Source: a virus (Duplodnaviria > Heunggongvirae > Uroviricota > Caudoviricetes). Taken from it: DNA of 6,439 nucleotides. This document shows positions 2,406 to 6,439 of the stretch, in pieces. The translations under genes and the position numbers were made by a program. The stretch lies in IMG/VR virus record IMGVR_UViG_2695420380_000009; one strand, written 5' to 3'. Under the pieces are notes generated by a model. The model was not told where the DNA came from, ran no database searches, and saw nothing but the letters and a program-made list of their open reading frames with translations. Numbering within the stretch: position 1 is the first letter of the stretch; each line of letters opens with the position of its first letter.

Positions 2406-2598
2406 TGCGCCATGAGTTTATTTTACCTTATCCGCCGACGGTGAATACTTACTGGCGACGTCGTGACAACACATATTTTGTATCAAAAGCCGGTGAGCGT
2501 TATCGCCGGGATGTGGCGCTTATTGTCCGTCAGCAGCGACTGAAATTAAGCCTGTCCGGAAGACTGGCGATAAAGATTATTGCAGAGCCACCGGATAA
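2405..2598 (+). pseudogene. rusA: Truncated rusA 5' fragment, copy 2 (about 64 codons), ending at a single ambiguous base at 2599.
   Basis: Translation MRHEFILPYPPTVNTYWRRRDNTYFVSKAGERYRRDVALIVRQQRLKLSLSGRLAIKIIAEPPD matches the rusA N-terminus, then the sequence jumps at 'n' 2599 into the middle of the small ORF, out of frame. Confidence 0.6.
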
Positions 2599-2599
2599 N

Positions 2600-2759
2600 A
2601 AAAGATGCCATTCGTCGGGATATGGTGCCAGCGCTCAGGGAACTGATGCAGGCGAAACATCGCGCACAAAAAGCGGTGGATGAGCTCGTTGATTGTGTGG
2701 CAGAGCTGGAAACCAAAGTTGGAAAGTTTGAAAAACTGGTGCAGGAGGTGCTGCGCTGA
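2600..2759 (+). pseudogene. 3' fragment of the small hypothetical ORF (copy 3, encoding the final 53 codons from KDAIRRDMVPALRELMQ to EVLR).
   Basis: Near-identical to the 3' part of allele 2 (one visible difference, aaaaactggtg versus aaaaaatggtg). It lacks a 5' end and start codon. Confidence 0.5.
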
Positions 2760-3133
2760 TGCGCCATGAGTTTATTTTACCTTATCCGCCGACGGTGAAT
2801 ACTTACTGGCGACGTCGTGGCAGCACATATTTTGTATCAAAAGTTGGTGAGCGTTATCGCCGTGATGTGACGCTAATTGTTCGCCAGCAGCGGCTGAAAT
2901 TAAACCTGTCCGGAAGGCTGGCGATAAAGATTATTGCAGAGCCACCGGATAAGCGCCGTCGTGACCTGGACAATATCCTGAAAGCACCACTGGATGCACT
3001 GACACATGCGGGAGTGTTAATGGACGATGAGCAGTTTGATGAAATCAATATCGTTCGTGGTCAGCCAGTATCTGGTGGACGTCTGGGGGTGAAGATTTAC
3101 CCCATAATGCATGAAGAGCAGGTCAAAAAATGA
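2759..3133 (+). CDS. rusA: Crossover junction endodeoxyribonuclease RusA (Holliday junction resolvase), the full-length copy of 124 aa.
   Basis: ATG at 2759 preceded by AGGAGG at 2743-2748. The protein shows family features as I recall them for E. coli RusA: N-terminal PYPPTVNTYW-type motif and the acidic catalytic region KRRRDLDNILKAPLDALTHAGVLMDDEQ. Start overlaps the upstream stop and the stop overlaps the Q start (ATGA). Confidence 0.85.
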   Translation: MRHEFILPYPPTVNTYWRRRGSTYFVSKVGERYRRDVTLIVRQQRLKLNLSGRLAIKIIAEPPDKRRRDLDNILKAPLDALTHAGVLMDDEQFDEINIVRGQPVSGGRLGVKIYPIMHEEQVKK

Positions 3134-4343
3134 AACTGGAAGATTTACCGAAATACTACTCCCCAAAATCCCCTTGCCTGACCGATGCATCGGNNNNNNN
3201 NNNNNNNNNNNNNNNNNNNNNNNNNNNNNNNNNNNNNNNNNNNNNNNNNNNNNNNNCCGATGCATCGGCCTCAACGTCAAAAGATGCGCTGAGTATCACT
3301 GATGTGATGGCCGCGCAGGGCATGACACAGAATCGGGCTGAGATGGGGTTTTCTGCGTTCCTGGGGAAAATGGGCATCAGTATGAATGACAGAGAGCGGG
3401 CAACAGAATTGCTGACAGAATATGCACTCAGTCNNNNNNNNNNNNNNNNNNNNNNNNNNNNNNNNNNNNNNNNNNNNNNNNNNNNNNNNNNNNNNNNNNN
3501 NNNNNNNNNNNNNNNNNNNNNNNNNNNNNNNNNNNNNNNNNNNNNNNNNNNNNNNNNNNNNNNNNNNNNNNNNNNNNNNNNNNNNNNNNNNNNNNNNNGT
3601 GTGATCGCGTGGCGGCGTTAAGAAAACTCCCGGCAGAAATAAAACCGGCAGTGATGCGTATTATGGCTTCGTATGCGTTTGAAGATTATGCCCGTAGCGC
3701 GGCGAGCAAAAAACAGTGCCCCTGCTGTCACGGAAAAAAATTTATTGAAAGCGAGGTTTTTACAAACAAGANNNNNNNNNNNCCGGCAGAAATAAAACCG
3801 GTAGTGATGCGCATTATGGCTTCGTACGCTTTTGAGGATTATGCCCGCAGCGCAGCGAGTAAAAAGCAGTGCCCTTGTTGCTATGGGGAAAAATTTATTG
3901 AAAGCGTAGTTTTTACAAACAAGGTCCAGTATCCGGATGGTAAGCCGCCGGTATGGGCAAAGTGTACGAAAGGTGTGTATCCGTCTTACTGGGAAGAATG
4001 GAAAAAAGTCAGGGAGGTGGTAAAAGTTGCCTGTCCGGAGTGTGGCGGAAAGGGTGAGGTTTCCACCGCCTGTAAGGATTGCCGTGGGCGTGGTGTCGCC
4101 ATTCATCGTGAAGAGTCGGTAAAACGTGGTATGCCTGTTATCAGAGACTGCCAGCGTTGTGGTGGTCGTGGCTATGAAAGACTACCATCAACGGAGGCAT
4201 TTAATGCTATATGCGAGGTGACAAACCAGATAACACGCGCGTCATGGGAAAAAACAGTTAAGAAATTTTATGATGCGCTGGTGACCCGGTTTGATATTGA
4301 AGAAGCATGGGCTGAGCGGCAGTTAAAAAAGGTAACTAGGTAA
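3130..4343 (+). CDS. Q: Late-gene antitermination protein Q, lambda Q family. As presented it is mosaic and not one intact ORF: the N-terminal part (3130-3433) and C-terminal part (3599-4343) are in different frames across a 165-N block.
   Basis: The N-terminal segment MKLEDLPKYYSPKSP...TDVMAAQGMTQNRAEMGFSAFLGK and the C-terminal tail ...WEKTVKKFYDALV...KKVTR resemble lambda Q as recalled from memory. Central CxxC zinc-binding motifs are present. The gene lies just upstream of a PR'-like promoter and terminator, the canonical Q position. Confidence 0.75.
3630..3923 (+). repeat. Diverged tandem duplication inside Q: two 141-bp copies (3630-3770 and 3783-3923) separated by 'a' plus 11 N, period 153 bp, in frame.
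   Basis: Direct alignment by eye shows about 16 mismatches in 141 bp, 14 of them transitions. Both copies encode PAEIKP[A/V]VMRIMASYAFEDYARSAASKKQCPCC[H/Y]G[K/E]KFIES[E/V]VFTNK. Confidence 0.7.
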
Positions 4344-4348
4344 CAAGG

Positions 4349-4395
4349 TTGATTTTTCCGGAATCTGTGGTAAATTCGTCATAACTATGGGCGTT
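4349..4395 (+). promoter_or_regulatory. PR'-like late promoter: -35 TTGATT (4349-4354), 16-bp spacer, extended -10 TGgTAAATT (4368-4376), followed by a candidate promoter-proximal pause/qut-like element (about 4377-4395).
   Basis: Sigma-70 consensus-like hexamers lie 5 nt after the Q stop. The architecture and downstream sequence cgtcataactatggg resemble lambda PR' (TTGACT-N17-TAAATT then tgactcaacgatggg) as recalled from memory. Confidence 0.6.
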
Positions 4396-4423
4396 TTATG
4401 CCTGACGTTAGAAGAGTTTCTAC

Positions 4424-4449
4424 AACCCGCCGCCGAGCGGGTTTTTTAT
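4424..4449 (+). terminator. Intrinsic terminator (tR'-like) about 40-65 nt downstream of the PR'-like start site.
   Basis: Stem aaCCCGC / GCGGGtt (5 G:C pairs plus 2 A:T pairs) with loop cgccga, followed by a T6 tract (4442-4447). Confidence 0.6.
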
Positions 4450-5043
4450 NNNNNNNNNNNNNNNNNNNNNNNNNNNNNNNNNNNNNNNNNNNNNNNNNNN
4501 NNNNNNNNNNNNNNNNNNNNNNNNNNNNNNNNNNNNNNNNNNNNNNNNNNNNNNNNNNNNNNNNNNNNNNNNNNNNNNNNNNNNNNNNNNNNNNNNNNNN
4601 NNNNNNNNNNNNNNNNNNNNNNNNNNNNNNNNNNNNNNNNNNNNNNNNNNNNNNNNNNNNNNNNNNNNNNNNNNNNNNNNNNNNNNNNNNNNNNNNNNNN
4701 NNNNNNNNNNNNNNNNNNNNNNNNNNNNNNNNNNNNNNNNNNNNNNNNNNNNNNNNNNNNNNNNNNNNNNNNNNNNNNNNNNNNNNNNNNNNNNNNNNNN
4801 NNNNNNNNNNNNNNNNNNNNNNNNNNNNNNNNNNNNNNNNNNNNNNNNNNNNNNNNNNNNNNNNNNNNNNNNNNNNNNNNNNNNNNNNNNNNNNNNNNNN
4901 NNNNNNNNNNNNNNNNNNNNNNNNNNNNNNNNNNNNNNNNNNNNNNNNNNNNNNNNNNNNNNNNNNNNNNNNNNNNNNNNNNNNNNNNNNNNNNNNNNNN
5001 NNNNNNNNNNATGCGTTGGGTTCACAAGCAAACCTCAGGCCCA

Positions 5044-5062
5044 CTGCTTTGCGCAAAAGCAG
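5044..5062 (+). promoter_or_regulatory. Perfect 7-bp inverted repeat, CTGCTTT-gcgca-AAAGCAG, 33 bp upstream of the methyltransferase start. Candidate operator or RNA hairpin; function unknown.
   Basis: Read directly from the sequence. There is no T-tract after it, so it is not a canonical intrinsic terminator. Confidence 0.3.
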
Positions 5063-5094
5063 AATGAGCCTATCAGAGACAGGCTTAATGATCC

Positions 5095-6288
5095 ATGCTT
5101 AATACTGTAAAAATATCCAGTTGTGAGTTAATCAACGCCGACTGCCTGGAATTTATCCGGTCGTTACCCGAAAATTCTGTTGACCTGATAGTCACGGACC
5201 CGCCGTACTTTAAAGTGAAGCCTGAGGGCTGGGATAACCAGTGGAAGGGCGACGATGATTACCTGAAGTGGCTGGACCAGTGTCTGGCGCAGTTCTGGCG
5301 GGTGCTGAAACCTGCCGGAAGTCTTTACCTGTTCTGTGGTCATCGCCTGGCATCTGATATCGAAATCATGATGCGTGAACGCTTCAGTGTGCTGAACCAT
5401 ATTATCTGGGCGAAGCCGTCCGGACGCTGGAACGGNNNNNNNNNNNNNNNNNNNNNNNNNNNNNNNNNNNNNNNNNNNNNNNNNNNNNNNNNNNNNNNNN
5501 NNNNNNNNNNNNNNNNNNNNCGGGCGTATTTCCCCGCCACAGAGCGCATTCTGTTCGCGGAACATTATCAGGGGCCGTATCGTCCGAAAGATGCCGGGTA
5601 TNNNNNNNNNNNNNNNNNNNNNNNNNNNNNNNNNNNNNNNNNNNNNNNNNNNNNNNNNNNNNNNNNNNNNNNNNNNNNNNNNNNNNNNNNNNNNNNNNNN
5701 NNNNNNNNNNNNNNNNNNNNNNNNNNNNNNNNNNNNNNNNNNNNNNNNNNNNNNNNNNNNNNNNNNNNNNNNNNNNNNNNNNNNNNNNNNNNNNNNNNNN
5801 NNNNNNNNNNNNNNNNNNNNNNNNNNNNNNNNNNNNNNNNNNNNNNNNNNNNNNNNNNNNNNNNNNNNNNNNNNNNNNNNNNNNNNNNNNNNNNNNNNNN
5901 NNNNNNNNNNNNNNNNNNNNNNNNNNNNNNNNNNNNNNNNNNNNNNNNNNNNNNNNNNNNNNNNNNNNNNNNNNNNNNNNNNNNNNNNNNNNNNNNNNNN
6001 NNNNNNNNNNNGACGGTGCAGGTGCCGTATACCGATGTGTGGACGCATAAACCGGTGCAGTTCTATCCCGGGAAACATCCGTGCGAAAAACCGGCAGAAA
6101 TGCTGCAGCAGATAATCAGCGCTAGCAGTCGTCCGGGTGACCTGATTGCAGATTTTTTCATGGGGTTGGGTTCGACAGTGAAAGCGGCACTGGCGCTCGG
6201 GCGTCGTGCAATTGGCGTTGAGCTGGAGACTGAACGTTTTGAGCAGACGGTTCGGGAAGTACAGGATTTAGTCAGCCAGAACGGATGA
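5095..6288 (+). CDS. DNA methyltransferase, beta-class amino-MTase (N6-adenine or N4-cytosine; PF01555-like). The central region is N-masked (5436-5520 and 5602-6011).
   Basis: N-terminal catalytic motif IV DLIVTDPPY (a DPPY tetrapeptide) and C-terminal AdoMet-binding motif I region HPCEKPAEMLQQIISASSRPGDLIADFFMGLGSTVKAALALGRRAIGVE. Motif IV preceding motif I is the beta-class order. The frame is preserved across both masked blocks (visible segments at 5095-5435, 5521-5601 and 6012-6288 share one frame). Confidence 0.8.
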   Translation: MLNTVKISSCELINADCLEFIRSLPENSVDLIVTDPPYFKVKPEGWDNQWKGDDDYLKWLDQCLAQFWRVLKPAGSLYLFCGHRLASDIEIMMRERFSVLNHIIWAKPSGRWNXXXXXXXXXXXXXXXXXXXXXXXXXXXXXRAYFPATERILFAEHYQGPYRPKDAGYXXXXXXXXXXXXXXXXXXXXXXXXXXXXXXXXXXXXXXXXXXXXXXXXXXXXXXXXXXXXXXXXXXXXXXXXXXXXXXXXXXXXXXXXXXXXXXXXXXXXXXXXXXXXXXXXXXXXXXXXXXXXXXXXXXXXXXXXXTVQVPYTDVWTHKPVQFYPGKHPCEKPAEMLQQIISASSRPGDLIADFFMGLGSTVKAALALGRRAIGVELETERFEQTVREVQDLVSQNG

Positions 6289-6290
6289 TA

Positions 6291-6319
6291 TTGAAGAATT
6301 AATTACGCGTCGTTATTAT
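6291..6319 (+). promoter_or_regulatory. Sigma-70 promoter for the tRNA: -35 TTGAAG (6291-6296), 17-bp spacer, -10 TATTAT (6314-6319), then a GC-rich discriminator gcggctccc before the tRNA 5' end.
   Basis: Near-consensus hexamers at optimal spacing, placed so transcription would start a few nt upstream of the tRNA at 6329. A GC-rich discriminator is typical of stable-RNA promoters. Confidence 0.5.
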
Positions 6320-6328
6320 GCGGCTCCC

Positions 6329-6401
6329 GGCCCTTTAGCTCAGTGGTGAGAGCGAGCGACTCATAATCGCCAGGTCGCTGGTTCAAGTCCAGCAAGGGTG
6401 A
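6329..6401 (+). tRNA. ileZ: tRNA with anticodon CAU, closely resembling E. coli tRNA-Ile2 (ileX/ileY type, the lysidine-modified AUA reader); ileZ-like phage-borne tRNA. No encoded CCA.
   Basis: Manual cloverleaf: acceptor GGCCCTT, D-arm GCTC-AGTGGTGA-GAGC, anticodon arm AGCGA-CTCATAA-TCGCC, variable loop AGGTC, T-arm GCTGG-TTCAAGT-CCAGC, 3' acceptor AAGGGTG, discriminator A. The T-arm is identical and the D-arm nearly identical to E. coli ileX as I recall it. Irregularities: G1-G72 mismatch, G2-U71 wobble, A27-C43 mismatch. Confidence 0.7.
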
Positions 6402-6439
6402 AGTAGTCAACAAAAACTGGCCACCGAGTTAGAGTTTTT

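Follow-up and report, generated by a model that had tools for sequence, protein, structure and literature searches.

The window analyzed here, a 6,439-nt stretch of viral DNA that constitutes the entire contig CXCT01000198.1 (GCA_001249045.1), ends in an ileZ-type tRNA-Ile2 gene that has very probably been cut after position 70 by an ISEc52/IS911-like insertion sequence (IS) and is probably inactivated. Both the prophage tRNA gene and the IS that breaks it are of known types, and the arrangement, which lies where a draft contig stops, holds nothing new in kind. The acceptor-stem irregularities and the missing CCA that drew attention to the gene arise at the junction with the IS.

Results

A Prophage tRNA-Ile2 Gene of the ileZ Family

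ARAGORN calls a single tRNA, with anticodon CAT, on the + strand of the window at 6329-6401. The Rfam family RF00005 covers those 73 bases over their full length with a score of 60.1 bits (E = 1.7e-11), above its gathering threshold of 29 bits. The features on which the analysis turns are, in order along the window:

3609..4343, + strand: late antiterminator Q (PF03589)
5095..6288, + strand: DNA N6/N4 methyltransferase gene (Pfam PF01555, E = 1.4e-39), directly upstream of the promoter
6291..6319, + strand: putative sigma-70-type promoter, TTGAAG-17-TATTAT, from a consensus scan
6329..6398, + strand: positions 1-70 of the ileZ-type tRNA-Ile2, from ARAGORN, Rfam, and allele alignments
6362-6364, + strand: tRNA anticodon CAT; the gene keeps intact D, anticodon, and T arms as well as the acceptor pairs from 3-70 to 7-66
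6387, + strand: T-loop position 59, G for A, the only difference from the closest intact alleles
6399..6439, − strand: IS3-family element (ISEc52/IS911-like), the outermost 41 nt of its right inverted repeat (IRR), 40/41 identical to ISEc52 copies

The "Met" label given by ARAGORN reflects the anticodon alone. The gene has the ileX-type acceptor pairs C4-G69 and C5-G68, used here to tell tRNA-Ile2 (CAU) from elongator tRNA-Met, it is 63/70 identical to K-12 ileX, and its homologs are annotated as tRNA-Ile by PGAP and as ileZ in GenBank. Across positions 1-70 it is 69/70 identical both to the allele of FDAARGOS_1059 and to ileZ of Stx2a_1447, and window 6285-6398 matches the intact loci of FDAARGOS_1059 and PhiR49_2 at 113/114 bases, with 6387 (G/A) as the sole difference. 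This G59 variant also occurs in K-12 ileX, in the tRNA-Ile of a second prophage type (L007), and in a viral contig with the same IS junction (L006). Judged by sequence, the feature is a member of the ileZ-family tRNA-Ile2(CAU) genes carried by Escherichia/Shigella lambdoid prophages between Q (in the window, Q and a methyltransferase gene) and the lysis or toxin genes, which bears out the initial annotation of a phage-borne tRNA-Ile2(CAU)-like gene.

The closest known system is the ileZ-argN-argO cluster of Stx2a_1447 (AP012536), with which the window shares the A27.C43 mismatch, the promoter architecture, and the upstream methyltransferase and Q genes; it differs in carrying IS sequence in place of tRNA positions 71-76 and G for A at T-loop position 59. 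Phages phiP27 and 933W-type phages presumably carry ileZ-argN-argO as well. The near-identity to ileX in the D and T arms noted by the initial annotation also holds: the T arm is identical and the D arm is one loop base off. With K-12 ileX the window gene shares the CAU anticodon, the anticodon loop, and four pairs—C4-G69, C5-G68, U12-A23, and C29-G41—which we take to be TilS/IleRS identity elements; it differs at seven positions (6, 20, 26, 27, 43, 44, and 67) and in being prophage-borne, truncated, and preceded by another promoter. The chromosomal tRNA-Ile2 genes are ileX and ileY; TilS modifies C34 of their product to lysidine, which allows it to read AUA.

Within 5000-6439, TTGAAG-17-TATTAT is the sole sigma-70-like site, against an average of 0.5 in shuffled sequence. 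The TATTAT hexamer, the TTG of the −35 element, and the 9-nt distance to the tRNA are kept in six phage and prophage sequences (alignment A2), while spacer and flanks diverge. Because elements and spacing are conserved, the transcript is probably still made. Of the strong promoter originally proposed for the gene, a sigma-70-like site conserved across diverged homologs is present in the sequence, and its activity at 6291-6319 is predicted from that conservation. With 9 nt between the −10 hexamer and tRNA position 1, the predicted 5′ leader is ~2-3 nt. RNase P substrates with so short a leader are unusual, but every phage allele conserves it (window 6314-6329).

The tRNA Sequence Ends at Position 70, Where an IS Begins

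All megablast matches to the tRNA locus, among 291 phage records as well as complete E. coli genomes, end at window position 6398. Intact loci read CAGCAAGGG followed by CCACCA, and the window reads CAGCAAGGG followed by TGAAGTAGTCAAC (alignments A1, A2); in a longer view, TCCAGCAAGGG continues into CCACCA in the intact homologs and into TGAAGTAGTCAACAAAAACTGGCCACCGAGTTAGAGTTTTT in the window. The homologs compared were ileZ of Stx2a_1447, the tRNA of PhiR49_2, two prophages of FDAARGOS_944, and one of FDAARGOS_1059, and in every relative the acceptor stem is a perfect 7 bp and the CCA is encoded.

From 6399 onward the window reads TGAAGTAGTCAACAAAAACTGGCCACCGAG, which matches the right terminal inverted repeat of an IS at 40/41 bases. 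Positions 6399-6439 align from the first base of elements carrying the PGAP label "IS3-like element ISEc52 family transposase", the end begins with the 5′-TG of IS3-family terminal inverted repeats, and the 40/41 match holds against the ISEc52 IRR in three reference copies (L003-L005). Searches with the IS end returned thousands of ISEc52-annotated copies; a 55-nt query consisting mostly of IS end had 9,783 matching places. A full copy of the element (L003) measures 1,250 bp, has 27-nt imperfect inverted repeats starting with TGAAGT, and is flanked by a 3-bp target duplication. Reference copies encode an orfA/orfB (DDE) transposase, and in L003 its coding sequence ends beside the terminus that matches the window, so the window holds the right inverted repeat, with the transposase genes predicted on the − strand past the contig end. 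Only the tip of this element of the IS3 family, IS3 group, lies in the window; at IS position 7 it has A in place of G, its one substitution, which is found in L006 too.

Read literally as a 73-nt tRNA, the window has every irregularity listed by the initial annotation: a G1.G72 mismatch, a G2.U71 wobble, an A27.C43 mismatch, and no CCA. The apparent U71, G72, and A73 are IS bases, so the tRNA gene is truncated after position 70 and lacks the seven-pair acceptor stem, native discriminator, and encoded CCA of an intact gene. The two acceptor mismatches and the missing CCA are therefore an artifact of the junction, since everything from 6399 is IS terminal inverted repeat. A27.C43 is of another kind: all the intact phage alleles that were examined have it, ileZ of the Stx2a phage among them, and it is thus a family trait and not decay of the window copy. 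The annotated choice between a functional and a decaying irregular stem accordingly assumed the wrong mechanism. The junction lies between 6398 and 6399, its flank is IS sequence, and all the relatives are intact at this point.

The exact tRNA-IS junction is absent from the genome contig and metagenome contig collections, and one viral contig, L006, contains it. The reciprocal junction (CCACTTCA-GGG-CCACCA), comprising the expected GGG duplication and the displaced CCACCA, was not found in scans of viral and genome contigs. The pattern used, CCACTTCAN{0,1}GGGCCACCA, specifies 17 bases, which is too short for collections of that size; all 137 of its 137 matches were chance occurrences in unrelated taxa, none with an IS end upstream. 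Neither the other IS end nor the GGG duplication nor the displaced CCACCA turned up, so the junction may also stem from a rearrangement or deletion bounded by the IS instead of an insertion.

The tRNA Module Is Common and Adjoins stx2A in a Minority of Genomes

The order Q, methyltransferase, tRNA-Ile does match the layout of Stx phages, as the initial annotation had observed: in Stx2 phages such as Stx2a_1447 the same genes are followed by argN, argO, and stx2AB. Two tRNA-Arg genes and one CAU tRNA have been described beside stx2a (PMC7946995), and three tRNAs in Stx2 phages (PMC4631060, PMC7946995). The window holds the near-identical ileZ with its own promoter downstream of Q, in the order Q, methyltransferase, promoter, tRNA; no argN or argO follows within ~10 nt, since the tRNA gives way to the IS at 6399 and the contig ends at 6439.

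As a signpost for a toxin locus, the module performs poorly. The promoter-plus-tRNA segment has 7,519 matching places, spread over 3,055 of the 5,426 complete E. coli genomes (56%), and it is contiguous with stx2A in only 589 of these genomes; a module this widespread is a poor marker for Shiga toxin genes. In FDAARGOS_1059 the order is Ile-Arg-Arg, then an STnc100-type sRNA, an esterase, and a holin, and in PhiR49_2 the tRNAs lead directly into lysis genes, with no stx at either locus. Nine sibling contigs of the prophage seen in the window, drafts that encode an identical RusA (exact-protein look-up), all carry an intact tRNA followed by Arg(tcg) and Arg(tct) or by Arg(tct) alone; those that reach far enough continue with DUF3927, an IraM/PmrD-like gene, and DUF1737, and neither stx nor an IS was found at the tRNA locus in any of the nine. 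Since the module is generic and both the siblings and the closest complete relatives are free of stx, the prior for stx past the IS in the window strain is low.

Two further features of these regions were observed. The argN gene (anticodon TCG) is degraded in several relatives (L148 4782-4881, L154, L156, L157, and L008 10429-10480), where its first ~25 nt remain and ARAGORN reports Ile and Arg(tct) only; the array is thus eroding in this lineage independently of the IS. An STnc100 sRNA (Rfam, 132-154 bits) lies downstream of the tRNA cluster or of stx in L001 (6842-7057), L002 (4644-4843), and L008 (10589-10778), and in the window strain it would be expected past the IS.

The Contig Is a Gapped Scaffold of Overlapping Pieces

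The window is a scaffold with 1,297 Ns in eight runs, located as follows:

N runs: 1905, 2599, 3194-3256, 3434-3598, 3772-3782, 4450-5010, 5436-5520, 5602-6011

Pieces 1-1904, 1906-2598, and 2596-3193 are joined by single Ns and map to overlapping parts of one reference; single-N joins of overlapping pieces are typical of ABySS-style scaffolders. The first two pieces are 98.1-98.3% identical to that reference, and most later pieces 99.7-100%. Because the pieces overlap and differ in identity to the same reference, their sequences indicate that the contig mixes reads of paralogous prophages. Gap lengths disagree with true distances (e.g., 382 bp are represented by 561 N). The methyltransferase gene, which encodes 352 aa in gap-free siblings, is broken by the N runs at 5436-5520 and 5602-6011, and the N-terminal part of Q is duplicated across an 11-N gap, the sibling Q measuring 273-284 aa. 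The Q gene (3609-4343) also matches a DnaJ-type CXXCXGXG zinc finger (PF00684), slightly below the Pfam cutoff.

The segments 1783-2758 and 3609-3930 seem to hold duplications: a further C-terminal fragment of DnaB, a second ORF of 85 aa, part of RusA, and the repeated Q N terminus. We rejected the duplicated DnaB-C, RusA, and Q fragments as biology: they are single-copy in gap-free siblings, and the overlap of scaffold pieces accounts for them as scaffolding artifacts. Four overlapping ORFs (203-234 aa) on both strands of 4385-5102 are likewise not genes; they stem from the 561-N run, in which no codon can read as a stop.

Since the IS is repeated in many copies, a short-read assembly would be expected to break in it, in keeping with a contig that stops 41 nt inside. 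Each of the 100 database blocks containing the prophage RusA has it on contigs of <10 kb only. The last piece, 6012-6439, is unbroken and contains the methyltransferase 3′ end, promoter, tRNA, and IS in one stretch.

The Same Junction Occurs in a Second Prophage Backbone

L006, a 7,936-bp contig from the viral collection with no Ns, carries 63 nt identical to window 6377-6439: 22 nt of tRNA T arm and acceptor with G59, followed by the IS end with its A variant. It extends 25 nt deeper into the IS and is organized as follows:

L006 1-66: IS end
L006 67-88: tRNA fragment
For comparison: L007 6413-6587

Since an independent, gap-free contig has the same junction, it is not a one-off read error. 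Its upstream region belongs to a different prophage (DUF1367-DUF1364-DUF1133), 99.7% identical to one in FDAARGOS_944, and on this ground L006 was rejected as the source of the window. The intact arrangement in FDAARGOS_944 runs DUF1133, terminator, promoter, tRNA-Ile(G59)-Arg-Thr-Gly, holin; relative to it, L006 is missing 175 bp, including the terminator, the promoter, and tRNA positions 1-48. This deletion ends 22 nt away from the IS and is thus not of the simple IS-adjacent kind. In L007 (6539-6849), the second prophage type, a DUF1133 Q-like gene is followed by an array of four tRNAs (Ile-CAU, Arg, Thr, Gly) whose promoter has the TATTAT geometry of the window, which shows that the tRNA module is modular among lambdoid prophages.

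Recurrence of the junction in two backbones could possibly reflect one insertion spread by recombination, an assembler join, or targeted insertion. That an IS911-like element inserts site-directedly into ileZ-type tRNA genes, with prophage tRNA genes as a preferred landing site, is an idea to which we give little credence. The tRNA 3′ end, GGGCCACCA, does resemble a block, TGGCCACC, within both IS inverted repeats, and a passage of PMC3299598 cites IS911 as favoring targets with IS911 end sequences unless OrfA redirects it. The junction is absent from complete E. coli genomes despite 7,519 tRNA-module places and 9,783 IS-end places, which argues against strong targeting, and one insertion spread by recombination between paralogous prophage tRNA genes is the more parsimonious account. 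A flank, CAGCARGG, shared by three other IS copies was considered as a sign of target specificity and rejected as a selection effect, because the three copies topped a similarity ranking whose query itself included that flank.

Alternative Readings of the Junction

The composite nature of the scaffold raises the question of an assembly chimera, in which the methyltransferase-linked ileZ would really be intact (reading AAGGGCCACCA-argN, with no IS) and the junction would come from a paralogous locus of the L006/L007 type with G59. The fusion would have been made by the assembler or scaffolder through a stretch of ~38 nt common to both tRNA types, and the real 3′ end would then read AAATCCAGCAAGGGCCACCA. 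Several observations are in keeping with this: the scaffold is built of overlapping, paralogous pieces with many gaps, L006 has the same junction in another prophage backbone, and the G at 6387 is the variant of the paralog and of L006, so the last ~50-90 nt could have come from a paralogous locus by recombination or by the assembler. The window also shares exactly its last 63 nt with L006, as expected of a de Bruijn branch point; window 6377-6439 would fit one with k−1 = 63, and in that case both junction contexts would exist in the window's genome, a coexistence that the exact length of the shared stretch suggests. Against a chimera, the unbroken piece 6012-6439 places the window-type D loop (GTGGTGAG), which differs in the paralog, 50 nt from the junction, and with a k-mer of ~55 or more real reads must span both. 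Since L006 lacks tRNA positions 1-48, the tRNA sequence common to it and the window is limited to 22 nt, which is not enough for a graph join. We therefore consider a chimera unlikely, and chimera or not, an ileZ-type tRNA gene cut at position 70 by an ISEc52/IS911-like IS exists.

Two other readings take the 3′ end of the tRNA at face value or assign the break to another kind of element. An intrinsically irregular, CCA-less, possibly functional tRNA-Ile2 marking an stx operon just downstream, as first proposed, would be compatible with a cloverleaf that still scores 60.1 bits, with an intact promoter, and with the Q-methylase-ileZ-argN-argO-stx2 order of Stx2 phages; it is very improbable given that positions 71-73 and beyond are IS sequence, that all relatives have the perfect acceptor stem and encoded CCA, and that 589 genomes with the module joined to stx2A stand against 7,519 module places, with no stx in nine siblings and the two closest complete relatives. 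The break could also mark where an integrase-type element (a phage, an island, or an ICE) attached, tRNA 3′ ends being classical integration sites, and the 3′-terminal 22 nt of tRNA that L006 keeps beside the same flank superficially resemble an att remnant. Such integration restores a complete tRNA 3′ end, but the window lacks positions 71-76, and the flank matches at 40/41 the terminal repeat of an IS (1,250 bp) that has a DDE transposase and makes 3-bp duplications; an integrase site is hardly credible. Interruption by the ISEc52/IS911-like IS remains the reading that we develop below.

Predicted Consequences for the RNA

In the proposed arrangement, a 1.25-kb IS3-family IS (ISEc52/IS911-like) would sit directly after tRNA position 70, its right inverted repeat abutting the tRNA and its transposase genes pointing toward it. 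The IS would have taken C71, C72, A73, and the encoded CCA out of the transcription unit, and its own first bases, T, G, and A, would be what the tRNA finder reads as positions 71-73, producing the G2.U71 wobble, the G1.G72 mismatch, a fortuitous A73, and the apparent lack of CCA. The promoter should still be able to fire, with a transcript that would run antisense into the IS. Its acceptor stem would consist of five Watson-Crick pairs and one G.U, and it would have neither CCA nor the native 3′ trailer. An RNA with these defects is most likely not matured, charged, or used, and the window tRNA is most likely a pseudogene created by IS insertion. If argN and argO persist past the IS, they would sit 1.25 kb from the tRNA promoter.

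Model scores are consistent with this expectation. Intact alleles score 70.5-72.5 bits with the Rfam tRNA model and the window copy 60.1, a loss of ~12 bits relative to 72.5. The minimum-free-energy fold of the isolated 73-mer is non-cloverleaf for the window and the intact allele alike and its shape is thus uninformative, so we compared energies of the imposed cloverleaf: −29.0 kcal/mol for the intact allele and −23.4 kcal/mol for the window (5.6 less stable), with acceptor duplexes at −11.7 and −7.8 kcal/mol, respectively. To our knowledge, CCA is encoded in all E. coli tRNA genes. Some CCA-less phage tRNA precursors are, however, matured in E. coli by RNase BN and the CCA-adding enzyme, a route by which the window transcript might keep some residual function.

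Discussion

The window resembles other IS-rich Escherichia/Shigella drafts whose contigs break at IS copies, ending as they do some tens of bases into a multicopy IS; what distinguishes it from the usual IS-interrupted gene of such drafts is only the presence of the same junction in a second prophage backbone. It also carries a caution for annotation, because a tRNA finder reports a good-scoring tRNA even when an inserted element supplies the last bases; when a contig ends in a tRNA with an "unusual acceptor stem, no CCA", a junction should therefore be looked for.

For the biology of these prophages, the ileZ tRNA module emerges as a generic feature of lambdoid prophage late regions. In the window strain, tRNA-Arg genes that may persist past the IS would be cut off from the promoter of the window tRNA. 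The IS probably removes a rare-codon (AUA) tRNA supplement, adding one more IS-interrupted prophage gene to an IS-rich Escherichia/Shigella genome.
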